Shown one piece after another: positions 1 through 23,522 of a DNA stretch of 62,407 bases (positions are counted from its first letter, which is position 1; every line of letters begins with the position of its first letter). The translations under genes and the position numbers were made by a program. Below the pieces are notes generated by a model that was not told the DNA's origin, made no database searches, and saw only the letters and a program-made list of their open reading frames with translations. This DNA comes from Candidatus Daviesbacteria bacterium (lineage in GTDB: Bacteria > Patescibacteriota > Microgenomatia > Daviesbacterales > UBA10151), in the NCBI GenBank assembly GCA_003519445.1, contig DOWS01000046.1, positions 1 to 62,407 of the forward strand, written 5' to 3'.

Positions 1-366
1 AATTTGTTTTGGGGGTGCTATACAAATTCTATCAAGGAAAATTTAATTCCGGAGTCAGTTACTAAAAATCAAGCTAAAGTCATTTACGCATCTGAAGCGG
101 ATATTCTCAATATGGCTCTATTCGGCAAGACCGCCCTGAATTGGAGAGATGAAAATAAAGGGAAAGAAGGTAATATCCGTGATTACTCTGATGTTACACA
201 ACTGGTGGTTTTGGCCAATCTTGAAGGGATCAATGCCGAGTTAATCCGTCAAGGTTTATCCCAATCGGAAAGATTAATTAAACTAAACAAAATTGCAATC
301 TCCCAAATGAGATCGCTGCTGGGAAGCCCTTCTTTAAAGAAACTATCAGAAAAAAATGTGGTTTGA
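1..366 (+). CDS. antirepressor-like protein, C-terminal part (KilAC/ORF6C-type); 5' end lies outside the window
   Basis: The frame is open from base 1; the tracker 'M' at 4 is a TTG. The C-terminal motif NIRDY..QLVVLANLEGINAELIRQG..ERL.KLN..A..QM resembles C-terminal domains of KilA-N/Bro-N antirepressor-type proteins (from memory, not searched). Confidence 0.4.
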   Translation, partial: NLFWGCYTNSIKENLIPESVTKNQAKVIYASEADILNMALFGKTALNWRDENKGKEGNIRDYSDVTQLVVLANLEGINAELIRQGLSQSERLIKLNKIAISQMRSLLGSPSLKKLSEKNVV

Positions 367-510: not shown

Positions 511-858
511 ATGAAAGATACTAATGAATTAATAAGAAAAATAATTATTTTTCGTAATGAGCGTAACTGGCAGCAATTCCATAATCCAAAAGATTTGGCT
601 TTGTCGTTAGTTTTAGAAGCAACTGAGGTAATGGAACATTTTCAGTGGAAAAATAAAGAGGAAATTGAGAGATATATTAAAACTAATAAAACCGACATCG
701 GTGAAGAATTGGCTGATGTGCTTTATTGGGTTTTGCTTATGAGTCATGATTTGAAAATTGATGTTTTAGAAGCATTAGAGAGGAAGATTTTAAAAAATGA
801 AGAAAAATATCCGGTTGAAAAGGCAAAAGGAAAACATACGAAATATAATAAACTTTAA
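511..858 (+). CDS. MazG-like all-alpha NTP pyrophosphohydrolase (dCTPase/house-cleaning type)
   Basis: 115 aa. The EATEVMEHF (ExxE) and EELADVLYW (EExxD) helices are typical of the MazG/DCTPP1-type metal site. Confidence 0.85.
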   Translation: MKDTNELIRKIIIFRNERNWQQFHNPKDLALSLVLEATEVMEHFQWKNKEEIERYIKTNKTDIGEELADVLYWVLLMSHDLKIDVLEALERKILKNEEKYPVEKAKGKHTKYNKL

Positions 859-860
859 TT

Positions 861-2786
861 ATGGCAGTTATTTATTCATCCACAAAAACTGAATTTATGG
901 CAGATGTCGATATTGCTACAACAGTAGAAGCATCTTTTGTTAGAGAGGTTGGCTATCGACCATCACCCGCTCAAATTGGTGCATTTAGGAACTCATTGCC
1001 ATATATGAGAAGGGTTTTGGAGGTGCCTGAGATACCGGGTAATGTAGGTATCGCTATAGAATATAAAATTCCTTCTACTTCTAAAAGGATTGATTTTATT
1101 ATCACAGGGAAAAATGAAGATAATATACCAGTACTAGTTTTAGTTGAATTAAAACAGTGGAGTGAGAACATTTTTGTTACTAATATGGATGGTATTGTAA
1201 ATACCAAATTTTATGGCGATGTTGAACATCCGTCATACCAGGCTTGGTCTTATTCAACTTTATTAGAGGACTACAATAGTAATATTCAAGATAACCATAT
1301 TAGTATTAAACCGTGTGCCTATCTTCATAATTATCAAGAAGATAATGTTATTAAAAATGATTTTTATAAAGAATATACAGACAAAGCACCGGTATTTTTC
1401 AAGTCAGACTGCGAGAAACTTCAAAGTTTTATAAAAAAATTTGTTAAATATGGTGATAATAAAGAATCTTTGTATTCAATCGAAAAAGGAAAAATAAGAC
1501 CCTCCAAAGCACTGGCAGACAGCCTTGCTTCAATGTTTAAAAAAAATAAAAAAGAGTTTACTTTAATAGACGATCAGAAAATTGTTTATGAAAAAGCATT
1601 GCAACTTGCCAAGTTATCAAACAGTAGGAATAAAAATGTTTTAATAGTTCGTGGTGGGCCCGGTACCGGCAAATCTGTTGTTGCAATTAATTTACTTTCT
1701 GAACTAATAAATAAAAAAGCTGATAATAATGTAAGCTATGTTACTAAAAATTCAGCTCCTAGAAGAGTATTTCAAGTAATGTTAGCTGGTGTATTCACAC
1801 AAACAAGGATTTCAAATTTGTTTAGGTCGTCAGATTCTTTTCTGAATCTAGAACCTAATATATTTGACACACTAATAATAGATGAGGCGCATAGGGTTAC
1901 AAAACAGGGTGGTTTTATGGGTAACTTAGGTGAGAATCAAATTATGGAGTTAATTAAGGCGACAAAGTTTAGTATATTTTTTATTGATGAAGACCAAAGA
2001 GTAACACTGAAAGACATAGGAAGAGAATCTGAAATTTCAGACTGGGCCAAAAAATTAGGCGCGAATGTAAGCTTTATGGAACTCGCTTCTCAATTTAGAT
2101 GTAACGGCTCAGATGGTTATTTGCCATGGTTAGATAATCTATTACAAATTAAAGAAACTGCTAATGAGACTACAGAGGGTATTAATTATGATTTTAAAAT
2201 ATTTGATGATGTGAGATTGATGCACGATGAAATTATTAATAAGAATAAACAGAATAATAAATCTAGAATGGTTGCAGGTTATTGTTGGAAGTGGATTAGT
2301 CAAAATGATCCTAGTTTAAAGGATATAGTCATTGGTGATTACCAAGCTACTTGGAATTTGAAACAACATGGACAAGCTTGGCTAGTTCATCCTGAATCTG
2401 TTACTGAAGTTGGTTGTATTCATACATGTCAAGGACTAGATCTTGATTATGTGGGCGTGATTATTGGGCTAGATTTGATTATAAGAGACGGAAAAGTAAT
2501 AACAGATCCGACAAAAAGAGCAACAACAGATAGGTCTTTAAGGGGATTAAATAGATTGGTTGAAGAAAACCCGATTGAAGCAAATAGGTTAGCTGATAGT
2601 ATAATAAAAAATACCTACAGAACATTAATGACTAGAGGAATGAAGGGTTGTTATATTTACTCAGTTGATCCAGAGACGCAACGTTATTTCCAAGAGCACT
2701 TAAACAGCCAAATTTCTGACTCTACTATTTATACGGATGACTCTAATGGTGCTTCGTTTAATGTTGATAAACAGATAAATGAGTAA
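861..2786 (+). CDS. DUF2075-family P-loop ATPase (Schlafen group III helicase-like) with an N-terminal PD-(D/E)xK-like nuclease motif
   Basis: 641 aa. It carries KRIDFII...VLVELKQW (D...ExK), Walker A GGPGTGKS and Walker B LIIDEAHR. It also has the downstream motifs QFRCNGSDGY, GYCWKW, IHTCQGLDLDYVGVI and LMTRG. The ATG lies 2 nt after the mazG-like stop. Confidence 0.85.
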   Translation: MAVIYSSTKTEFMADVDIATTVEASFVREVGYRPSPAQIGAFRNSLPYMRRVLEVPEIPGNVGIAIEYKIPSTSKRIDFIITGKNEDNIPVLVLVELKQWSENIFVTNMDGIVNTKFYGDVEHPSYQAWSYSTLLEDYNSNIQDNHISIKPCAYLHNYQEDNVIKNDFYKEYTDKAPVFFKSDCEKLQSFIKKFVKYGDNKESLYSIEKGKIRPSKALADSLASMFKKNKKEFTLIDDQKIVYEKALQLAKLSNSRNKNVLIVRGGPGTGKSVVAINLLSELINKKADNNVSYVTKNSAPRRVFQVMLAGVFTQTRISNLFRSSDSFLNLEPNIFDTLIIDEAHRVTKQGGFMGNLGENQIMELIKATKFSIFFIDEDQRVTLKDIGRESEISDWAKKLGANVSFMELASQFRCNGSDGYLPWLDNLLQIKETANETTEGINYDFKIFDDVRLMHDEIINKNKQNNKSRMVAGYCWKWISQNDPSLKDIVIGDYQATWNLKQHGQAWLVHPESVTEVGCIHTCQGLDLDYVGVIIGLDLIIRDGKVITDPTKRATTDRSLRGLNRLVEENPIEANRLADSIIKNTYRTLMTRGMKGCYIYSVDPETQRYFQEHLNSQISDSTIYTDDSNGASFNVDKQINE

Positions 2787-3498
2787 TAAGAATATTCTTA
2801 ATTCAAGTATTAAAAAAATACACCCTTCGGAGGGACACAGAAAAAGACTTCGGGAAAAATTTCTTGAATTTGGCCTAAGTGGGTTTCTTGATTATGAGAT
2901 TGTTGAATTATTGCTAACATTAGGCACTCCACGCAAAGATTGCAAAGCAATAGCTAAAGAAGCTATAAAAAATTTTAAAACTCTAAAAGGTGTACTGGAT
3001 GCGGATGTATCCGAGCTAACTACGATTAATGGAATTGGTATGTCAAATGTTTTGGGGATAATTCTATTTCGAGCAATTTCTGAACAATACTCAAAAGAAA
3101 AAATCTCCCCCAAAATCTTATTAAATTCTTCTAAGTTGGTTGCTGAATATCTTCAAACAAAAATAGGAAACAAGAAGGAAGAACATTTTATGATCTTGTA
3201 CTTTGATACAAGAAATAAATTAATAAATGAAGAAATTTCTATTGGTACATTAAATGCAAGCCTGGTTCATCCAAGAGAGGTTTTTAAAAAGGCGATAAAA
3301 GATAATATTGCACAAATTATTGTTGCACACAATCATCCATCTGGTGATCCCAACCCTTCAGAGGAAGATATATCTACAACAAACAGGCTTATTGAGGTAG
3401 GTAAATTAGTAGGCATTTCTATAATTGATCATTTGGTGATTACTCTAAATGATTATTTCAGCTTCAAAGAGAAAGGTATTATTACAACTAAAATTTAG
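2779..3498 (+). CDS. radC: RadC-family JAB/JAMM domain protein
   Basis: 239 aa with the JAMM motif HNHPSGDPNPSEED and an N-terminal helix-hairpin-helix-like region. It overlaps the upstream gene by 8 nt. Confidence 0.9.
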   Translation: MSNKNILNSSIKKIHPSEGHRKRLREKFLEFGLSGFLDYEIVELLLTLGTPRKDCKAIAKEAIKNFKTLKGVLDADVSELTTINGIGMSNVLGIILFRAISEQYSKEKISPKILLNSSKLVAEYLQTKIGNKKEEHFMILYFDTRNKLINEEISIGTLNASLVHPREVFKKAIKDNIAQIIVAHNHPSGDPNPSEEDISTTNRLIEVGKLVGISIIDHLVITLNDYFSFKEKGIITTKI

Positions 3499-3524: not shown

Positions 3525-3641
3525 ATGAAATTAAAACAAGAGTTAATATCTTATTCAAGTAAAATAAATGAAGAAGTTTATAAACTCTACGGCTTAACGC
3601 CGGAAGAAATTGCAAATGTGGAGGGGGTTGCTAAGAATTAG
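3525..3641 (+). pseudogene. orphan 38-codon ORF resembling the extreme C-terminus of a restriction-modification (type IIG/type I/BREX-like) methyltransferase
   Basis: It translates to MKLKQELISYSSKINEEVYKLYGLTPEEIANVEGVAKN. The '(V)Y.LYGLT.EEI..VEG' tail is a recurrent end of N6-adenine methyltransferase/specificity fusions. No methyltransferase body lies upstream. Confidence 0.35.
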
Positions 3642-4224
3642 ATTTGACTATTCCTTCTTTTACCAGCCTTCGGGCTAAAACATCACCGGAAACTTGGAAG
3701 ATATCGAGTAAATCTTCTGTAATTGTGGCAAAAATTTCGGGTGTTTCTTGAGAGGGGATTCTTCCTAACCTCTTCTTGAGTTCATTAATAAGCAGTTGGG
3801 TTGGAACTAAAACATGACTTGCAAAACTATATGCTTGATATTCGAGCCAGCCATGTTCTTCATCGGTTATTTTTGCCGCTAGGCTGTTTAAATCCTCAAC
3901 GGAGTTGATATTAAGATTTTTAAATAAATCACCATGTAATATAAAATGACCAATTTCATGGGCAATAGTAAACCGCGTTCTATTTTCAAAATTCATATAT
4001 AAGTTGAAATCTATAAAAATTGTAGTTAAATCAGAAATTAGGAACCCGTCCACGTCATAATCTTTTTTTAGATTTATTTGTTCATGAATTTTAAGATTAA
4101 GTTTTTGCTCGGCGATCTCTTCAATCGGTATTGGTAGTGAATTGCGGGGATGGTAATTGGTCAGAAATTGATCTGCTATTTCACCAATTCTTTTGTATGA
4201 AAGACATTGCAGGGTAATATTCAT
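3631..4224 (-). CDS. ImmA/IrrE-family zinc metallopeptidase (DUF955)
   Basis: 197 aa with the HEIGHFILH (HExxH) motif. Its ATG overlaps the stop of the upstream XRE gene (ATGA). Confidence 0.85.
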   Translation of the reverse strand: MNITLQCLSYKRIGEIADQFLTNYHPRNSLPIPIEEIAEQKLNLKIHEQINLKKDYDVDGFLISDLTTIFIDFNLYMNFENRTRFTIAHEIGHFILHGDLFKNLNINSVEDLNSLAAKITDEEHGWLEYQAYSFASHVLVPTQLLINELKKRLGRIPSQETPEIFATITEDLLDIFQVSGDVLARRLVKEGIVKSNS

Positions 4225-4610
4225 TCATTATTAATCAGATCAACCAATTCCTGGAGCTTTTTTTTGGATAGTCTTTGACCACGAGCAGTTCTAAAAAGTA
4301 AAGGTAAAAACCTTGGTGCTCGTGTGTTTGACAGTATATCTTCCGGTACTCTGCCCTTGGCAGCATGAGCAAGGTCAAAAAATATGGTCCATTCCTCGCT
4401 ATCTTTTGGAATTTTTAAGGCAACAGCATATCCTGCCAGTTTTTCTTTATCAATACTGGGCGAAAGGATATTTCTTTCGAGTCTGCTGATATTTCCCGGG
4501 TCATAACCGTATCTTTCGCAAAAAGATCGAAGGGTAAAACCAATAGCAACCCTTTTTTGTCTGAAGAATTCTCCGAATGATTGAACAGTAAAGACTTGAC
4601 TTTTTGCCAT
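4221..4610 (-). CDS. XRE-family helix-turn-helix transcriptional regulator
   Basis: The HTH region FRQKRVAIGFTLRSFCERYGYDPGNISRLERN is present. I prefer the ATG at 4610 (MAKSQVF...), because the tracker start at 4649 is a TTG that is itself the -35 hexamer of a consensus promoter. Confidence 0.8.
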   Translation of the reverse strand: MAKSQVFTVQSFGEFFRQKRVAIGFTLRSFCERYGYDPGNISRLERNILSPSIDKEKLAGYAVALKIPKDSEEWTIFFDLAHAAKGRVPEDILSNTRAPRFLPLLFRTARGQRLSKKKLQELVDLINNE

Positions 4611-4613
4611 ATC

Positions 4614-4649
4614 TGTTGTAATAATAGTACAACAGTTTTTATTTGTCAA
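4614..4649 (-). promoter_or_regulatory. sigma70-type promoter (TTGACA-17 nt-TATTAT) with a 7-bp palindromic operator bracketing the -10 box; near-leaderless XRE transcript
   Basis: On the minus strand, TTGACA is at 4649-4644 and TATTAT at 4626-4621, with a 17-nt spacer. The inverted repeat is tgttgta (4614-4620) / tacaaca (4628-4634). The ATG at 4610 is only 10 nt past the -10 box. Confidence 0.55.
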
Positions 4650-5020: not shown

Positions 5021-5275
5021 ATGAAAAAAGGCAAGCAAATTATTAAACAAAATGAGTTTACCGAGTTTTTACTTTACACAACGCCAAATGGAAAAGTAAA
5101 AGTTGAAATATTTCTTCATAATGAAAATATCTGGTTAACCCAAGCTAGAATTGCCGAACTTTTTGGAGTAAATCGTCCCGCCATTACTAAACATTTAAAA
5201 AACATATTTGAAACTAAGGAGTTGAACAAGAAATCAGTTAGTTCCATTTTGGAACATACTGCAAAAAACTTTTAA
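5021..5275 (+). pseudogene. RhuM-family protein, N-terminal fragment (truncated)
   Basis: 84 aa. FLLYTTPNGKVKVEIFLHNENIWLTQARIAELFGVNRPAITKHLKNIFETKEL matches the conserved RhuM N-terminus. Full-length members are several-fold longer, and this ORF stops where 'TA.DGK.Y' normally continues. Confidence 0.55.
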
Positions 5276-5293
5276 AAAAGGTTAAGAAATAAT

Positions 5294-6133
5294 ATGGATG
5301 CAAAATTAGCTGTTTTTGAAGGAAGAAAAATCCGCAGGCAATGGGATGGGAAAAAGGAAAAGTGGTATTTTTCCGTGGTTGATATTATACAGGCTTTGAT
5401 TCAACAGCCAGATTATCAAACCTCCAGAAAATACTGGAATAAATTAAAAGAAAGATTAAAGAAGGAAGGAAGTGAGTCGGTGACAAATTGTCACCAACTG
5501 AAAATGCAAGCAAGCGATGGAAAATTTTATAAAACAGATGTGGCTGATGTAGAAACTTTGTTTCGTCTGATTCAATCCGTTCCTAGTCCTAAAGCAGAAC
5601 CAATTAAACTTTGGCTGGCAAAAGTCGGGTATGAAAGATTACAAGAAATAGCTGATCCGGAAAAATCTATCAGCAGAGGCAGAACAAATTGGCAAAGAAT
5701 GGGCAGGAGCCAGAAATGGATCCAGCAGAGAATGATGGGTCAGGAAATCCGCAATAAACTGACTGATTATTGGAAAGATAATGAAGTTAGTCAAAAAGAT
5801 GAATATGCAATTTTGACAAATATTATTCATGAGGAATGGAGTGATCTATCGGTTAAGGAACACAAGTCGCTGAAAAATCTCAAGACAGAAAACTTGCGTG
5901 ATCATATGACAGATGCGGAACTGGTTTTTACGGCTTTGGCGGAACTTTCAACCAGGCAAATTGCAGAGGTAGATCAGGCCAAGGGTTTTGAAGAAAACAT
6001 AATTCCGGCCAAAAAAGGCGGACGGATTGCTAAAAATGCCCGGAAGGAGCTGGAGCAGAAAACCAGCAGAAAAGTTGTTTCAGGAGAAAATTTTAAGCTG
6101 CCGGGAAAGAAACTCCTAGACGGAGCATATTAA
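5294..6133 (+). CDS. Bro-N / DinD-like (DNA-damage-inducible protein D-like) protein
   Basis: 279 aa with an N-terminal Bro-N-like FEGRKIRRQWDGKKEKWYFSVVDIIQAL. The C-terminal helical region (LRDHMTDAELVFTALAELSTRQIAE) resembles E. coli DinD. Confidence 0.65.
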   Translation: MDAKLAVFEGRKIRRQWDGKKEKWYFSVVDIIQALIQQPDYQTSRKYWNKLKERLKKEGSESVTNCHQLKMQASDGKFYKTDVADVETLFRLIQSVPSPKAEPIKLWLAKVGYERLQEIADPEKSISRGRTNWQRMGRSQKWIQQRMMGQEIRNKLTDYWKDNEVSQKDEYAILTNIIHEEWSDLSVKEHKSLKNLKTENLRDHMTDAELVFTALAELSTRQIAEVDQAKGFEENIIPAKKGGRIAKNARKELEQKTSRKVVSGENFKLPGKKLLDGAY

Positions 6134-14285: not shown

Positions 14286-15731
14286 ATGGAAGATTTATCT
14301 GTAGAGTTGGTAAAAAACAGAGCTATTAAAGGAGCTGCAATACTGACTGTCAGAAATATCCTAATTCAGGCAGTATCTTTTTTTTCAATTGCTCTTTTAA
14401 CTTTTCTTTTAGAGCCGCAGGATTACGGCGTATTTTTTATAGTTTCCGCTGTTGTTAGTTTTTTGGCATATTTTGGCGATATAGGTTTTGCCGCCAGCTT
14501 GATACAAAAAAAAGAAAAATTGCAGGATATTGAACTGCGGACTATTTTTACCGCTCAACAAATACTGGTGTTTTCTCTTGTCAGTATAGTTTTTCTGCTT
14601 ACCCCGGTTATTAGAAATTTCTATCATTTTGACAATGGGGCAATATATCTTCTTTGGGCCCTTGCTTTTTCGCTTGTTCTTTCATCATTAAAAACTATAC
14701 CTACAGTATTGTTAGAGAGAAAACTGGAGTTTAATAAATACATTATTCCTCAAATCCTGGAAGTTTTAGTTTTTAATATTACTGCGGTATTTTTTGCCTG
14801 GAGGGGCTTTGGAGTTACAAGTTTTACAATAGCCGTCATCTTGCGGGGATTTGTAGGTTTGGTGTCAACTTATATAGTTTCACCGTGGATCCCGAGGTTT
14901 GCATTCTCTGCCTCCTCCTTTAAATCTTTGTTAAAGTTTGGAATTCCTTATCAAGCAAATACTTTTCTTGCAATGATCAAAGATGATGGCATGACGCTAT
15001 TCTTGGGTGGGACGCTGGGTTCATCCGGAATAGGGCTTTTGGGATGGGCTCAAAAATGGGCTTTTGCGCCTCTGCGTTTTTTTATGGATCAGGTTATCAA
15101 AGTTACTTTTCCTGCTTTTTCCCGTATGCAGGATAATAAAAAAGAGTTATCCAATGCCTTATCAAAATCAATTTTTTATATTTGTCTTTTGGTATTTCCG
15201 GCCCTTACTTTTTTGATACTGGTTGCTCCGTCTTTGGTGGAGGTAATTCCAAAGTATAGCAAATGGAGCCCGGCGCTTTTGGCGCTGTCGTTTCTCTCCA
15301 TTACTTCCGCCTTAGCCGCGGTAGCAACCCCTTTAACTAATGCCTTCAATGCAATTGGAAAAATATCAGTAACTTTTAAATTAATGATTATGTGGACTGT
15401 GCTCACTTGGCTTTTTGTGCCGTTTTTATCTTCTGTATTTGGAGTAAATGGCGCGGCAGCGGGTTTTGCCCTGGTAGGACTTAGTTCGGTGGTAGTGATG
15501 TTTGTTGCCTTAAAATATGTTGAGATAAATTATTTGAAAATTGTTGGAAAGCCATTGCTTGTTTCAGTAATTACAGGTGGGGTAGTGTTGGTAATAAGAT
15601 CTTCTTTGCAGGTTTCATGGCAACAGGTTGCTTTTATGTGCGCTGGTGGATTAGTAACATATTTTACAACTGTTCTTATCCTAGAACCCAAACTTTTAAT
15701 TTTTCTTAAAATAAAAAAAAGAAATGCTTAA
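14286..15731 (+). CDS. MOP-superfamily oligosaccharide flippase (Wzx-like)
   Basis: 481 aa with about 12-14 TM helices. The N-terminus KNRAIKGAAILTVRNILIQAVSF is typical of Polysacc_synt flippases. Confidence 0.85.
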   Translation: MEDLSVELVKNRAIKGAAILTVRNILIQAVSFFSIALLTFLLEPQDYGVFFIVSAVVSFLAYFGDIGFAASLIQKKEKLQDIELRTIFTAQQILVFSLVSIVFLLTPVIRNFYHFDNGAIYLLWALAFSLVLSSLKTIPTVLLERKLEFNKYIIPQILEVLVFNITAVFFAWRGFGVTSFTIAVILRGFVGLVSTYIVSPWIPRFAFSASSFKSLLKFGIPYQANTFLAMIKDDGMTLFLGGTLGSSGIGLLGWAQKWAFAPLRFFMDQVIKVTFPAFSRMQDNKKELSNALSKSIFYICLLVFPALTFLILVAPSLVEVIPKYSKWSPALLALSFLSITSALAAVATPLTNAFNAIGKISVTFKLMIMWTVLTWLFVPFLSSVFGVNGAAAGFALVGLSSVVVMFVALKYVEINYLKIVGKPLLVSVITGGVVLVIRSSLQVSWQQVAFMCAGGLVTYFTTVLILEPKLLIFLKIKKRNA

Positions 15732-18700
15732 AATACTCTGTTTAATTTTTTTTATGTTTATTCTGCCTCAAACAATTTTTGCACAGGGGTCTTCATTTGT
15801 ATCAATTGTTAATCCTGTAAGGGGAGCGGATTTTTGGGATTTAAAAAATCAGGAGCCTTGGATCATGGTTTTGGGCCAAATAGAAACTTTAAAAAAATAC
15901 AATTTTCCTGCAACCTTCCTTCTCCGTTTTGATGCTTTATCAGATGATGTGATTATGCGGGCGCTAAATAAGGACCAGAATTTTGAAAAAGGATTATTTT
16001 TGGAAGTAACCCCGACACTAACAAATGCGGCAGGGGTAAGTTATCACAAATCTGATAATTGGCATGGCGCCGGAAGCGCTTTTTTAACAGGTTATGAGCC
16101 AGGAGATAGAGTAAAACTGATAGACGCTGCTTTTAAAAAATTTAAAAAAATTTTTGGTGATTATCCAAAATCAATAGGGGCATGGTGGGTTGACAGTTAT
16201 TCTTTGGAATATATGCAAAAAGAATACGGCATCAGCGCTTCTTTAATTGTATCTGACCAATACTCAACAGATAATTATCAAATCTGGGGGCAGTATTTTT
16301 CTACGCCGTATTATCCCTCCAAAAAAAATGCTTTGCATCCTGCTCAAACAATTGAAAATAAGATGTCGGTTGTAATGATGCAATGGGCCCCAAGAGACCC
16401 TGTTAATTCTTATGGAAACGGAGTTATGGAGAGTACTTATAGCGTTCAGGCAAATGATTATATTGATTATCACAATTTGGATACAAAGTATTTTACGAAT
16501 CTCTTAAATCTTTACACTAATCAGCCGCTTAATCAATTTAGTCATCTTGTGGTGGGATTGGAGAATTCTTATTCTTGGGAAAAATATAAAGCAGAATACA
16601 GTAATCAAATAGAAGCTTTATCAAAAAAGAAAAATATTGGAGAAGTATCTGTTGTTACCATGAAAGATTTTGCCTCCTGGTATAAAAACAGATTTCCCGG
16701 GCTTTCACTTCCTCAAATCATAGTAGCAGATGATCCTTTGGGATCTTTAAATAAAACAATTTGGTTTATGAACCCGTATTTTAGGGCAGGATGGTTTTTC
16801 AACAAGGATGGTTCCCTGTTTAGGGATATCAGGCAATATATTGACGGGGAACAAGAGCTATGTTTTCAAAGCCGCTGCGACAGCGTTAATTTTGCAACAA
16901 ATGCCACCAGGGTTTTGGATGAGGTAAGCTTCGGGCATAAATGGGTAATTGATGAGGGTAAAATTTCAGATTTTAAAGTTATAAAACAAGGGGATAATTT
17001 TGTTATTAATTATAAAAATGAGGCAGGTAATGCAAGGAAAATAGAATTTTTACCAAGGGATATTAGTATAGACGGGAAAATTTCATCTATTGACGGGGCA
17101 ATACTTGAGGCAACAAAACATCAACTAAACCAAAAAGAGCGGATTGATTTGAAAAAAGGTTGGTTTGAATGGTCTGCTCAAAGCATTGCTGCTAAAATCA
17201 TTAAATTTCTAATATTTATAATAATCGGTTGTTTGGTGCCGGGATTATTAATGATAAAAAAAGTGTTCTCCCAAGAGACACCTTTTTGGAAAAAAATTTC
17301 CCTAGCACTACCTTTAGGGTTTGTCCTGATTACCTTATTATTTTATCTTCTTTCTCTTGTTGATTTTAGACAGGGGATTTTCATTTACTTAATTTTTAAT
17401 CTTTTATTGCTGATAAAATCCAGGAAACAAATTTTTTCTGATTTTTCTTTAAAAATTAAGGATAAATACAGTTTTATTTTAATAGGCTTAATTGGAACAG
17501 GGACTATATTTCAACAACTGCCTGTATTTAAAAGCGGTCTTCATTTTCCCTATGGACTGGGTTTTTGGGGACCAAATACGCATGATGGAATATGGCATAT
17601 CAGTTTAATCAATCAGCTTGTTAAATCTACCCCGCCTGAAAATCCCATTTTTGCCAGAGAAGTTTTAACGAATTACCACTTTTTTTATGACTTATTTGTG
17701 GCTTTAACAAATTATGTATCAGCTATTCCTGTTGCTGATTTGCTGTTTAGATTTTACCCAATTATTTTTTCCCTGCTTTTGGGGATTTTGACTTACTTTT
17801 TGATTAATCTTTTGGTTACTGAAAAAAATCTTTGGAAGAAAAGATTAGCTTGTTTTTTTGGCATTTACCTGGTTTATTTTTCAGGAAGCTTTGGATGGAT
17901 AGTGGAGTTTATAAAGGTTAGGCATTTAGGCGGGGAATCTGCTTTTTGGGCAAATCAATCAATATCATTTAATTTAAATCCTCCATTTGCCATATCACTC
18001 CTTATTGTTATTGCCATACTCCAACTTTTGCCAAATCTTAAAAATAAATTATCCATTTTAATAATAACTATTCTTGCGGGAAGCCTAATTGCTTTTAAGG
18101 CATATCCGGCAATTTTAATTTTATTTTCTCTTGCAATAGTCGGAATCCTTAAAAAAAACAGACAATATATATTGGTATTTCTTTTTAGCGCTTTTTTATC
18201 CCTAATACTATTTCTTTTTAATTTTAGTGTTGATAAACAATTGATAATTTTTTCTCCTTTTTGGTTTATTCATTCCATGGTTGATTCGCCGGATCGGGTG
18301 GGGTGGGTTAGGTTATCTTTGGCAAGGGTGGCTGGATGGGAGAGCGGTAACTGGTTTAAATTTTTAACAGCAGAATTAATTAGTCTGGTGATTTTTATAT
18401 TGGGTAATTTGGGAACAAGGGTCTTTGCCCTACTCTATCTCCGTAAAATGAAACATATTGTGCGACATACAAATTATTTATTTCTATTTGTCTTTTCTCT
18501 CCTTTCATTAATTATTCCTGTTTTCTTTATTCAATCAGGAAATCCCTGGAATACAATCCAGTTTATTTATTACGGATTATATATATCAGCTGTGGCAGGA
18601 GGGATAATTTTTGCCCAAGTCATTAGCAGTATAAATAAAATTTTAGCATTAGTTTTTGCAGTATTATTTTTGCTCATTACTCCGATAAATTCCTGGGCCA

Positions 18701-19137
18701 CTGCTAATGGATATTTAAACTATCAGCCTCATGCTTTGGTAACCAATGAAGAATTAGAGGCGTTAAACTTTTTGAAAACTAAAGAGGACGGAGTGGTTTT
18801 AACTTATCCTTATGATCAAAAATTAAAGACTCAAATGGCCGAACCCTGGCCTATTTTAATATACGACAGCACCTCTTATGTGTCGGCATTGTCCGGTAAA
18901 GTTATCTTTGTTGAAGATGAACCGCAAAATCAAATTCTTTTGACAGATTATAAAAAAAGAATAGTGGCGGCAAAAGATTTTTTTAACGGATCTTTTGACA
19001 TTAATTTTTTATTAAATAACAATATAAAATATATTTACCTGCCAAAAATATATAATGCGTGGATTAAAGAAAACCCGGAGGTTATTAAAAATATATTTGA
19101 AAATGAGGAAGTGGTGATATATGAAGCAAATTTTTAA
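15724..19137 (+). CDS. large tripartite envelope protein: signal peptide + extracytoplasmic domain 'A' + polytopic domain 'B' + C-terminal soluble domain 'C' (function unknown)
   Basis: 1137 aa. Domain A (about 15.78-17.16 kb) is paralogous to the N-terminus of 43038..45056. Domains B and C (about 17.17-19.14 kb) are paralogous to 21507..23522. Confidence 0.8.
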   Translation: MLKILCLIFFMFILPQTIFAQGSSFVSIVNPVRGADFWDLKNQEPWIMVLGQIETLKKYNFPATFLLRFDALSDDVIMRALNKDQNFEKGLFLEVTPTLTNAAGVSYHKSDNWHGAGSAFLTGYEPGDRVKLIDAAFKKFKKIFGDYPKSIGAWWVDSYSLEYMQKEYGISASLIVSDQYSTDNYQIWGQYFSTPYYPSKKNALHPAQTIENKMSVVMMQWAPRDPVNSYGNGVMESTYSVQANDYIDYHNLDTKYFTNLLNLYTNQPLNQFSHLVVGLENSYSWEKYKAEYSNQIEALSKKKNIGEVSVVTMKDFASWYKNRFPGLSLPQIIVADDPLGSLNKTIWFMNPYFRAGWFFNKDGSLFRDIRQYIDGEQELCFQSRCDSVNFATNATRVLDEVSFGHKWVIDEGKISDFKVIKQGDNFVINYKNEAGNARKIEFLPRDISIDGKISSIDGAILEATKHQLNQKERIDLKKGWFEWSAQSIAAKIIKFLIFIIIGCLVPGLLMIKKVFSQETPFWKKISLALPLGFVLITLLFYLLSLVDFRQGIFIYLIFNLLLLIKSRKQIFSDFSLKIKDKYSFILIGLIGTGTIFQQLPVFKSGLHFPYGLGFWGPNTHDGIWHISLINQLVKSTPPENPIFAREVLTNYHFFYDLFVALTNYVSAIPVADLLFRFYPIIFSLLLGILTYFLINLLVTEKNLWKKRLACFFGIYLVYFSGSFGWIVEFIKVRHLGGESAFWANQSISFNLNPPFAISLLIVIAILQLLPNLKNKLSILIITILAGSLIAFKAYPAILILFSLAIVGILKKNRQYILVFLFSAFLSLILFLFNFSVDKQLIIFSPFWFIHSMVDSPDRVGWVRLSLARVAGWESGNWFKFLTAELISLVIFILGNLGTRVFALLYLRKMKHIVRHTNYLFLFVFSLLSLIIPVFFIQSGNPWNTIQFIYYGLYISAVAGGIIFAQVISSINKILALVFAVLFLLITPINSWATANGYLNYQPHALVTNEELEALNFLKTKEDGVVLTYPYDQKLKTQMAEPWPILIYDSTSYVSALSGKVIFVEDEPQNQILLTDYKKRIVAAKDFFNGSFDINFLLNNNIKYIYLPKIYNAWIKENPEVIKNIFENEEVVIYEANF

Positions 19138-21506: not shown

Positions 21507-23522
21507 ATGTTAATAGCAAACACTTTTCTTTTTGGCATTTTTTTCTTAATTCTTGCGTTGTTTATTTTTTATAACACCGGTTACGGTGTATTATCTTCTA
21601 AAATAAAAGAGCTTGAGGATCAGGAAATAATAGTTTTGGCTTTTTCTTTGGGGCTGGTTATTTTTGTGGGAATTGCTGTTTTTCTGGGGGTTTTTAATTT
21701 AAGATGGCTTCTTTTGCCGGTTTTTCTGGCAACCGGATTTTATAGTTTGATTAAATATAAAGAAAAATTATTTGTTCCATGGAGAATATTTATCCGGTGT
21801 AAGTCCTTACTGTTGTTGATTATTTTAGGTATTTTAGTCCAGGGATTTATCAATTTCCCGAGCGGATTTCACTACTCCGAAGGACTGCTTTTTTGGAGTT
21901 CCCAAGGCCACGACGGATTATGGCATGTGAGTTTAATGGAAGAGATTAGAAAAAATTTTCCTCCGCAAAACCCCATTTTTTCAGGAGAAAAGCTTTTAAA
22001 TTATCATTTTTTGGTTGATGTTTTAATGGGGGAAACATACCGGATTTTCCCGTTTTTTTCTCCGCTGGACCTGTATTTTAGGTTCTTTCCAATAATTTTT
22101 TCTTTCCTTTTCGGCCTTGGAGTTTTCTCATTTGTTAAAAGATGGCAAGAGAGTCAAGCTGTAGGTTACTTGGCAATATTTTTTACATATTTTACAGGCA
22201 GCTTTGGCTATTTTGTAACTTTTTTCAGGAATAAAAATTTATTTGGAGGCGAAACGGTTTTTTGGGCTTCTCAAGAAAATACTTTATTAGGGAATCCCCC
22301 GCATGCCATTGCCCATATTTTTCTGGTTGGAATACTGTTTTGTCTGTTGCTGTATTTTCAAAAAAGGCGGATATTCTGGTTAGTTATTTCATTTATTTTA
22401 GGAGGTTTACTGGCCGGTTTTAAGGTTTCCGGAGGGTTGATTATGCTAGTGAGTGTGGGAGCTGCCGCGATAGTAGACCTGTCTTTTTTAAGGAAATGGC
22501 ATTTAATCCTGCTTACCGTAGCATTGGGGACTGCTAACTTTATAACTTTTAAAGCCATGACTTCACAAGAAGCAGCCTCGTTTTTAATGTTTTTGCCATG
22601 GTGGTTTATAAGAACCATGGTGGTGGATAAGCTGGGTTGGATGGATATGGAATTTAGAAGACAACACTATCTTTCCAAAGGAACATGGCATGCTTATTTA
22701 AGAGTTGCGCAGTTAGAAACAACGGCTTTTCTGATATTTATAGTAGGAAATTTTGGAATGAGAGTATTGGGGTTTTACAGTATTGCAAAAGACGGATTTA
22801 AGAAAAAACTTATCAGGAGTCCTATTGACGCAATGCTTTTTGCGTCGCTTCTTACGGGAATTTTAATGGTGACTATTTTTGTGCAAAAAGGGCTTATCTA
22901 CAACAACATCCAATTTATTCAGTATTCTTTGCTTATCATGGGTTTTTATGCCGCAGTGTCGGCTTACCAGATGATTATTTTGTTTAAAAAAAAGTTAATA
23001 AGGGTGATTATTTTGTTAATGATAGTTTTGTTTTCAGTGCCAACAGTGATAGGAAATTTAAATGAGTTTTACGGGCCCGGCAGGAAACCCCTGGCTATTA
23101 TCAGCAATCAACAGATGGAAGCGTTAAATTTTCTAAGAACAAACAGCCAACCGCAGGATATTATTTTAACAATTCCATTTAATAAATATTTAAAAGATCA
23201 ATATAAGAGCGAACCAAGGCCAATAAATGCCTGGTATTCTACCGCCTATGTTTCTGCTCTTACCGGAAGAAGCACATATTTTACTTCGGAGGAGCAGGCA
23301 TTAATCACAGGTTATCCTGTTGATAAAAAGTTGGCTAGGGTAAAAGAGTTTTTTGCGCAGACGGATTTTTCCTTTAATAAAAAATTCCTGCAAGAAGAAG
23401 GAATAAAATATCTATATATTGCCAAGGATGAGTTGGATAAATTGATAAATGTTCAGGAAAATAATCTGGAAATTATGTTTGAAAATAAAGAAGTAATAGT
23501 ATATAGAATAATAAACGGGTAA
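21507..23522 (+). CDS. polytopic membrane protein, domains 'B'+'C' (paralogue of the C-terminal 650 aa of 15724..19137)
   Basis: 671 aa. Shared blocks include FW..GHDG(L/I)WH(V/I)SL....PP(Q/E)NPIF.....L.NYHF, GSFG(Y/W)..., (E)(S/T).FWA.Q and the C-terminal (E/M)EALNFL(R/K)T...IKY(L/I)Y(I/L). Confidence 0.75.
   Translation: MLIANTFLFGIFFLILALFIFYNTGYGVLSSKIKELEDQEIIVLAFSLGLVIFVGIAVFLGVFNLRWLLLPVFLATGFYSLIKYKEKLFVPWRIFIRCKSLLLLIILGILVQGFINFPSGFHYSEGLLFWSSQGHDGLWHVSLMEEIRKNFPPQNPIFSGEKLLNYHFLVDVLMGETYRIFPFFSPLDLYFRFFPIIFSFLFGLGVFSFVKRWQESQAVGYLAIFFTYFTGSFGYFVTFFRNKNLFGGETVFWASQENTLLGNPPHAIAHIFLVGILFCLLLYFQKRRIFWLVISFILGGLLAGFKVSGGLIMLVSVGAAAIVDLSFLRKWHLILLTVALGTANFITFKAMTSQEAASFLMFLPWWFIRTMVVDKLGWMDMEFRRQHYLSKGTWHAYLRVAQLETTAFLIFIVGNFGMRVLGFYSIAKDGFKKKLIRSPIDAMLFASLLTGILMVTIFVQKGLIYNNIQFIQYSLLIMGFYAAVSAYQMIILFKKKLIRVIILLMIVLFSVPTVIGNLNEFYGPGRKPLAIISNQQMEALNFLRTNSQPQDIILTIPFNKYLKDQYKSEPRPINAWYSTAYVSALTGRSTYFTSEEQALITGYPVDKKLARVKEFFAQTDFSFNKKFLQEEGIKYLYIAKDELDKLINVQENNLEIMFENKEVIVYRIING

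Follow-up and report, generated by a model that had tools for sequence, protein, structure and literature searches.

The window analysed here, a stretch of 62,407 nucleotides (nt) comprising positions 1 to 62,407 of contig DOWS01000046.1 from a Candidatus Daviesbacteria bacterium (assembly GCA_003519445.1), carries near its 5' end three consecutive genes for a MazG-like nucleoside triphosphate (NTP) pyrophosphatase, a predicted nuclease-helicase, and a RadC protein. An initial annotation, made from the sequence alone, had described them as translationally coupled and proposed them as an anti-phage module. The open reading frames (ORFs), all on the plus strand at 511-858 (115 amino acids, aa), 861-2786 (641 aa), and 2779-3498 (239 aa), are arranged exactly as described there. 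At the first junction the stop codon TAA is followed by tt and then by the ATG at 861, which leaves a gap of 2 nt. The helicase and RadC genes overlap by 8 nt, and ATGAGTAA contains both the RadC start and the helicase stop. The close coupling of the genes and the MazG-like, DUF2075, and RadC domain assignments hold as well, with PF12643, PF09848, and PF04002 all scoring above their cutoffs. The features of the three genes are as follows.

511..858, plus strand: MazG-like all-alpha NTP pyrophosphatase of the DCTPP1/RS21-C6 type, 115 aa (PF12643, PDB matches)
613-642, plus strand: metal-binding motif E36/E39/E42
703-720, plus strand: metal-binding motif E65/E66...D69
805-813, plus strand: C-terminal KYP motif of the MazG-like protein
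861..2786, plus strand: complete gene for the nuclease-helicase, 641 aa, in the short version lacking a C-terminal S24 domain
861..1565, plus strand: predicted N-terminal NERD-like PD-(D/E)xK nuclease domain, residues 1-235 (conserved motifs, AlphaFold2 model)
1086-1097, plus strand: D78 (RIDF), nuclease motif
1146-1160, plus strand: E96-L-K98, nuclease motif
1227-1253, plus strand: Q127xxxY131, nuclease domain motif
1632..2669, plus strand: DUF2075/Schlafen-group-III superfamily 1 (SF1) helicase-ATPase domain, residues 258-603 (PF09848)
1653-1676, plus strand: Walker A motif GGPGTGKS, residues 265-272
1875-1895, plus strand: Walker B motif IIDEAHR (DE, residues 341-342)
1977-2000, plus strand: helicase motif FFIDEDQR
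2779..3498, plus strand: full-length RadC, 239 aa (PF04002, PF20582, NCBIfam equivalog)
within 2779..3498, plus strand: helix-hairpin-helix (HhH)/UPF0758_N domain of RadC, residues 21-89 (PF20582, 6e-10)
within 2779..3498, plus strand: JAB domain of RadC, residues 116-233 (PF04002, 6e-44)
3328-3369, plus strand: JAMM-type motif (HxH...D) HNHPSGDPNPSEED of RadC, residues 184-197

The first protein matches the MazG-like profile PF12643 at 3e-16 (59.8 bits versus a cutoff of 27). Its PDB matches include the pyrophosphatase 4qgp (6e-19) and mouse and human dCTP pyrophosphatase 1 (8e-16), and judged by sequence it is nearest to the DCTPP1/RS21-C6 branch among the all-alpha NTP pyrophosphatases. In 66 partner proteins from related loci, conservation of the acidic metal-binding residues and of the KYP motif reaches 90% or more, which argues for the predicted protein being an active enzyme. 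DCTPP1/RS21-C6 and house-cleaning MazG enzymes have the all-alpha fold, the acidic residues, and the KYP motif in common with the window protein, which, unlike them, sits in a mobile operon with a nuclease-helicase. It might act in either the depletion or the sanitising of deoxynucleoside triphosphates (dNTPs).

The second protein covers the full profile PF09848 (SLFN-g3_helicase) at 2e-102. Because the full-length AlphaFold2 model is poor (predicted local distance difference test, pLDDT, of 62), its top Foldseek matches SLFN11, RecD, Pif1, and Upf1 bear on the helicase half only, where they are consistent with the helicase assignment. The N-terminal region matches the Pfam NERD family below threshold (E 0.0036). 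Four alignments (A1, A3, A4, and A5, with 25, 60, 82, and 46 sequences and identities down to 25%) confirm that the D...ExK motif noticed in the initial annotation is real: D78 and E96-L-K98 are invariant, and E67, Q127xxxY131, Walker A, and the DE of Walker B are invariant or nearly so. The Q127xxxY131 motif resembles the QxxxY of RecB-family nucleases. An AlphaFold2 model of residues 1-240, based on 82 homologues, reached a pLDDT of 87.4 and a predicted template modelling score (pTM) of 0.83. A long helix and a first strand precede strand 77-84, which is opened by D78, and E96 and K98 lie in the next strand (90-98). The modelled topology is the alpha-beta-beta-beta-alpha-beta core expected for PD-(D/E)xK nucleases. 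The best structural match in the viral library BFVD was a phage 'Nuclease-related domain protein' (E 6e-3, probability 0.95, template modelling score 0.43). Foldseek found no significant match of this model in the PDB, where the PD-(D/E)xK enzymes EndoMS and MspJI ranked first, and searches of the PDB sequences with the single sequence and with a profile of the N-terminal domain gave no match. The predicted structure thus agrees with the nuclease fold supposed in the initial annotation, and the evidence for this fold is moderate, not strong.

The nuclease-helicase belongs to a large family. It has at least 8000 database matches, many of them 62-68% identical over the full length and found in Patescibacteria and other lineages. 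The N-terminal domain alone forms 1481 clusters at 50% identity and always occupies the N-terminus of proteins of approximately 620-650 or 790-815 residues. A scan of species representatives (one genome per species) yielded 80 loci with 51-65% identity to the window helicase. Their sources are Gamma-, Beta-, Alpha-, and Zetaproteobacteria, Desulfobacterota, Bacteroidota, Elusimicrobia, Verrucomicrobia/Kiritimatiellia, Lentisphaerae, Nitrospira, Acidobacteria, Armatimonadetes, many Patescibacteria, and the archaeal genus Methanobacterium; complete Escherichia coli genomes contained no relative. Adjacency was counted at the 74 loci whose upstream sequence spans 450 nt or more. In 64 of these a MazG-like gene lies directly upstream on the same strand, with a median gap of 0 nt and 26 overlapping junctions. 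Four more loci have the MazG-like gene inside the module (68/74), two with RadC inserted between the genes and two with the MazG-like gene downstream of the helicase. The six loci without a MazG-like gene are of high GC content, and their raw ORF lists are noisy. The pairwise identities of the MazG-like and helicase proteins correlate (Mantel r = 0.32, a value reached by none of 999 permutations). The adjacency of the MazG-like and DUF2075 genes therefore extends across unrelated genomes, and the cassette is a horizontally mobile, accessory unit whose conserved core consists of this pair alone, not of the trio. More distant DUF2075 relatives also keep an NTP pyrophosphatase together with a modification reader or a nuclease, as in the arrangements MrcB_N-MazG-DUF2075 (Priestia), PRA-PH-HNH-DUF2075 (Bacillus thuringiensis), and NOV_C/DUF3883-DUF2075 (Streptomyces). 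These neighbours echo the report that modification-dependent endonucleases adjoin DUF2075 NTPases (Lutz et al., 2019).

The combination of a nuclease with a Schlafen-III-like ATPase, as recognised in the initial annotation, is Nhi-like. Nhi of Staphylococcus epidermidis (SERP2475; Bari et al., 2022) is a validated anti-phage system that consists of a single gene for a nuclease and DUF2075 helicase, and the Nhi-like protein of Bacillus cereus FSL H8-0482, likewise validated against phages, has the same architecture (Millman et al., 2022). Both share with the window protein the order of an N-terminal PD-(D/E)xK-type nuclease followed by a DUF2075 SF1 helicase. In contrast to the single-gene Nhi, the window family nearly always comes with a pyrophosphatase, and in many cases also with a peptidase module. 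All 46 diverse family members examined match the PADLOC profiles PDC-S41 and Nhi, and 44 of them match AbiO (1e-11 for the window helicase, weak and partial); these matches are both weak and partial throughout, with 2e-21 as the best for PDC-S41. On these grounds the family is classed as a sister of PDC-S41/AbiO and not as a member. The helicase domain is also homologous to that of the eukaryotic Schlafen group III (SLFN11), as seen from the PF09848 score and the top Foldseek match, but the window protein has no Schlafen core/AlbA_2 nuclease domain according to Pfam and carries the NERD-like PD-(D/E)xK domain instead. With regard to the pyrophosphatase, dCTP deaminase/dGTPase defences and the PUA-Calcineurin-CE/MazG-HAD systems might have an analogous effect, the removal of dNTPs during infection, and in a 2026 preprint MazG-like domains replace a dNTP-degrading effector. 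The window pyrophosphatase accompanies a predicted DNA-targeting effector, unlike nucleotide-depletion defences that act alone. Membership in the dNTP-depletion family was rejected because there is no homology to dCTP deaminase or dGTPase.

The initial annotation had not recognised the trio as a named system. Table S2 of Millman et al. (2022; bioRxiv 10.1101/2022.05.11.491447), however, already lists its core pair as a candidate under the label 'Pyrophosphatase', with the constructs SG192 and SG193. The pair has thus been predicted before, tested once, and not verified. Apart from this supplementary table, literature searches that paired MazG with DUF2075 or with Schlafen, or that addressed PDC-S41, revealed no link between the two genes. 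The 45 candidates of that screen were selected by co-localisation with known defence genes and were expressed from their native promoters in E. coli and Bacillus subtilis against 26 phages. Like the window genes, the candidate comprises an adjacent and co-oriented pair of an approximately 100-aa MazG-like and an approximately 640-aa DUF2075 protein. The DUF2075 protein of SG192 is 52% identical to the window protein (E 1e-131, 396 residues shown) and its pyrophosphatase 46% identical to the MazG-like protein (E 8e-29). The construct differs from the window in having no RadC gene, it has no S24 domain, and the candidate was never named or described in the main text. The authors state that unverified candidates may still be defensive. 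Neither the link to RadC nor the fusions with S24 described below turned up in the literature that could be searched.

The RadC protein of the window exceeds the cutoff of the NCBIfam RadC equivalog NF000642 (216.8 versus 180), matches the RadC homologue of PDB entry 2qlc at 3e-30, and is of the long chromosomal type, unlike the short type of mobile elements. It is not a constant partner. RadC adjoins the pair in 7 of the 80 loci, and the helicases linked to it cluster in one region of a distance tree. The conserved three-gene neighbourhood that the initial annotation proposed to look for is therefore confined to one clade, these seven loci plus the closest relatives of the window, and 36 of the 80 loci carry a fused S24 domain instead. 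One may thus ask whether the pair functions alone, RadC being a passenger or housekeeping gene that by chance ended up 3' of it in one lineage and contributes nothing to the module. The restriction of RadC to one part of the helicase tree, its match to the general equivalog, and a reverse test in which none of 11 RadC homologues with 30-48% identity adjoined DUF2075 are in line with this explanation. The closest relatives tell against it, as metagenomic relatives with 72-88% identity keep the whole trio in completely different flanks (a ribosomal operon with Fic and PIN/Phd; AbiEi/AbiEii with NYN; Bro-N with DUF2779). Moreover, all six full-length RadC relatives with at least 81% identity lie immediately 3' of the helicase, the stop and start codons of the two genes overlap not only in the window but also in loci L083 and L085, and RadC is inserted between the MazG-like gene and the helicase in L016 and L046. 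RadC also never occurs with the S24-fused form (0/36 versus 7/44; one-sided hypergeometric p of approximately 0.012, not corrected for phylogeny), which is weak evidence because RadC marks essentially one clade. On balance we regard the passenger explanation as unlikely.

The S24 domain is found in a C-terminal extension of 150-200 residues in 36 of the 80 relatives (among them L009-L012, L015, L017-L021, L023, and L024), which matches the LexA-like Peptidase_S24 family with E-values down to 3e-25. In an alignment to an E. coli LexA sequence, the catalytic Ser119 is kept in 36/36 and Lys156 in 35/36 of the extensions (LexA numbering), and most of them carry an AAG or ACG motif at the position of LexA/CI/UmuD self-cleavage. 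The Ser/Lys dyad and the Ala/Cys-Gly cleavage-like motif are thus common to these relatives and the S24 peptidases LexA, UmuD, and CI. The two groups differ in that S24 is fused here to a nuclease-helicase, whereas the comparison proteins have a DNA-binding repressor domain; the window protein has no S24 domain. Together, the distribution of RadC and S24 among the homologues points to a peptidase module that recurs as an accessory of the two-gene core and can be exchanged.

The surroundings of the cassette are variable. Apart from the module genes, no neighbour is conserved across the 80 loci. The neighbours are nevertheless typical of conflict islands, as the initial annotation had held for the neighbourhood, and include toxin-antitoxin and AbiE genes. 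A TOTE primase-helicase occurs in 11 of the 80 loci, and RhuM, Fic, HNH, XRE-SocA/Panacea, and a second DUF2075 paralogue are also found nearby. Pfam and PADLOC searches of the 137 nearest neighbours identified Fic/SoFic (6), HNH (6), RhuM (4), Type IV methyl-directed restriction with DUF3427 (4), nSTAND3 (3), PDC-S05, and PDC-S23. Plasmid-borne members of the family adjoin restriction-modification genes. Loci L099 and L100 have the 3' half of a radC gene that encodes only the JAB domain, followed by the same ImmA/XRE gene pair as in the window (4551-5572 in L099), and contain no MazG-like or DUF2075 gene. The arrangement resembles what a deletion of the cassette would leave behind.

Such a mobile cassette might serve the element that carries it, for example in replication, anti-restriction, or counter-defence, by analogy with phage MazG and the RadC/ArdB 'moron' modules. 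RadC-like genes do occur in anti-restriction modules of mobile elements, phage MazG genes are common, and KilA-N, Bro-N, and ImmA/XRE genes are neighbours in the window. One phage-labelled GenBank record carries the pair. Yet no relative was found in the 2.9 million viral contigs of IMG/VR, and 50,697 phage records contained four weak or isolated matches, one of them good, so that viral data all but lack the family. Integrase and replication genes are not consistently close to the relatives' loci, and the window RadC is of the long chromosomal type and not of the short one found in mobile elements. We therefore consider this explanation very improbable.

In the window itself, the following features lie around the three genes.

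4-366, plus strand: KilA-N-type ORF running off the window start, homologous to the C-terminal part of the KilA-N protein of L002
418..445, plus strand: candidate promoter, a weak sigma-70-like match TTCACA-16-TACTAT within the 144-nt gap 5' of the MazG-like gene
3631-4224, minus strand: ImmA/IrrE-type M78 peptidase (PADLOC capP, 8e-19)
4221-4649, minus strand: XRE helix-turn-helix (HTH) gene (PADLOC capH, 0.01), overlapping the ImmA/M78 gene by 4 nt
5021-5275, plus strand: ORF of 84 aa resembling the RhuM N-terminus, probably a truncated remnant (comparison with RhuM of relatives)
5294-6133, plus strand: Bro-N domain protein with a weak AbiJ_NTD4 match

The promoter match agrees with the consensus at 9 of 12 positions, a degree of agreement that occurs here no more often than in shuffled sequence. 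The initial annotation had placed the trio in an island of antirepressor-type genes, XRE/ImmA genes, and restriction-modification debris. The KilA-N-type, truncated RhuM, Bro-N, and ImmA/XRE genes are present, and restriction-modification debris was not found in the window. In L002 the KilA-N protein (5264-6103) is encoded 1.5 kb upstream of the same cassette. We discarded the idea that the ImmA/XRE pair regulates the trio, as the pair is convergent with and downstream of the trio and absent from L081, L083, and L085. CapH/CapP systems are defined by a divergent pair of HTH and ImmA genes, whereas the window pair is convergent and lies 3' of the trio. From 6.6 kb onward the window encodes glycosyltransferases and polysaccharide genes. 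The region 6623-47218, a long run of large genes mostly on the plus strand, encodes glycosyltransferases of the PMT_2 type, membrane proteins related to YfhO/PTPS, a protein resembling polysaccharide flippases, and an LCAT-like esterase; such a region for glycosylation of the cell envelope is typical of a small Patescibacteria-like genome. The large ORFs at 15724-19137 and 21507-23522 have no Pfam match.

Several further arrangements were observed at the related loci. The TOTE gene of L009 (6155-8590; PF22548, 2e-104) and of ten other loci lies approximately 1 kb downstream of the cassette, where it often occurs with a Fic gene. A tetratricopeptide-repeat (TPR) protein with an HExxH motif is encoded directly upstream of the MazG-like gene in L010 (5567-6994), L039, L051, L065, and L072, and a TPR protein takes the same upstream position in the Microcystis 'phage' record L086 (3632-5650); it could be another accessory module. 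In L014 (9887-11776), L030 (9863-11845), L060, L076, and L088 (8095-9984), a divergent nuclease-DUF2075 paralogue, whose N-terminal domain is approximately 30% identical, follows directly downstream and results in tandem Nhi-like genes. In the closest species-representative locus, L001, the first ORF called 5' of the MazG-like gene (1458-1901) encodes a member of the cytidine/dCMP deaminase family (PF00383, 9e-8), a further pyrimidine-nucleotide enzyme beside the cassette.

Our best reading of these data, which we hold with a probability of roughly 0.55, is that the cassette is an Nhi-type defence module in which a partner protein hydrolyses nucleotides and an exchangeable peptidase acts as regulator. 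A number of observations weigh against it. The only experimental test of any family member was negative: SG192, with a 98-aa pyrophosphatase and a 643-aa DUF2075 protein from Bacillus firmus LK28, is listed with an 'x' under 'observed defense', and for SG193 from B. thuringiensis Lr3/2 the entry reads 'Cloning failed' (Millman et al., 2022). The similarity to known systems is partial. The PADLOC Nhi profile matches at 6e-11 and not over its full length (residues 179-417 versus profile positions 133-333 of 470), the PDC-S41 match (3e-16) covers the N-terminal half only (residues 2-306 versus profile positions 3-283 of 657), and the validated Nhi-like protein is 22% identical to the window protein over 242 aa (BLASTP, E 5e-7). 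The structural scores behind the nuclease fold are marginal, and the survey of the 137 neighbouring genes had no matched genomic control. Finally, every component of the module has also been linked to DNA repair.

This last point leads to the main rival of a defence function, a mobile module for DNA-damage tolerance or repair that is not an immune system. The pyrophosphatase would clean damaged dNTPs from the pool, the nuclease-helicase would process damaged or stalled replication intermediates, and RadC or the SOS-type S24 domain would couple both to RecA or single-stranded DNA signals, in analogy to the mobile umuDC and imuABC cassettes. The DCTPP1-type homology with conserved catalytic residues and the house-cleaning roles published for MazG and DCTPP1 fit such a module. 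So do the LexA-like S24 domains with intact dyad and cleavage-like motif in 36/80 relatives, the canonical full-length RadC, whose historical annotation is that of a DNA repair protein, and the lack of defence by SG192. A repair function is less easily reconciled with the patchy, horizontally transferred distribution, with flanks that vary and in which toxin-antitoxin, Fic, RhuM, restriction, and TOTE genes predominate, with plasmid-borne members beside restriction systems, and with the apparent loss of the cassette from a related genome. The architecture in common with the validated anti-phage Nhi proteins also points away from it. We thus judge repair rather unlikely.

Protection against phages or other invading DNA is the most likely function of the cassette. 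The ATP-driven nuclease-helicase would load onto foreign DNA or replication intermediates and degrade them. The pyrophosphatase might hydrolyse canonical dNTPs and so starve replication, or it might hydrolyse the 5-modified or other non-canonical dNTPs that phages make for the protection of their DNA. Since distant relatives adjoin modified-cytosine readers and the enzyme has DCTPP1-type homology, the hydrolysis of modified dNTPs is an attractive idea. The peptidase module would gate the effector, in the clade of the window as a separate RadC with its HhH DNA-binding and JAB metallopeptidase-like domains, and in many other relatives as the fused LexA-like S24 domain, and it may respond to single-stranded DNA or DNA damage. 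A more elaborate version, which we consider quite improbable, would be a three-part immune system: the pyrophosphatase would destroy non-canonical dNTPs with which phages disguise their DNA, for example 5-hydroxymethyl-dCTP or -dUTP, the phage genome would thereby become a substrate of the nuclease-helicase, and a DNA-sensing peptidase, RadC here and S24 elsewhere, would unlock the effector proteolytically at single-stranded DNA or RecA filaments.

Should the module defend its hosts, the Nhi/Schlafen-type nuclease-helicase defences would gain an enzyme of the nucleotide pool, and such effectors would be gated by interchangeable peptidase modules of the RadC/JAB or LexA-like S24 type. The earlier negative screen covered the short form without either peptidase module and 26 phages. 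If the proposed gating is true, bacterial Schlafen-like helicases would be tied to the sensing of DNA damage or single-stranded DNA, as is the case for human SLFN11, and there would be a handle on RadC, whose function has been elusive for decades; the three-part immune system, if true, would provide the first defined biochemical role for this protein. The family is common in Patescibacteria (Candidate Phyla Radiation, CPR) and present in archaea, groups in which few defence systems have been characterised.

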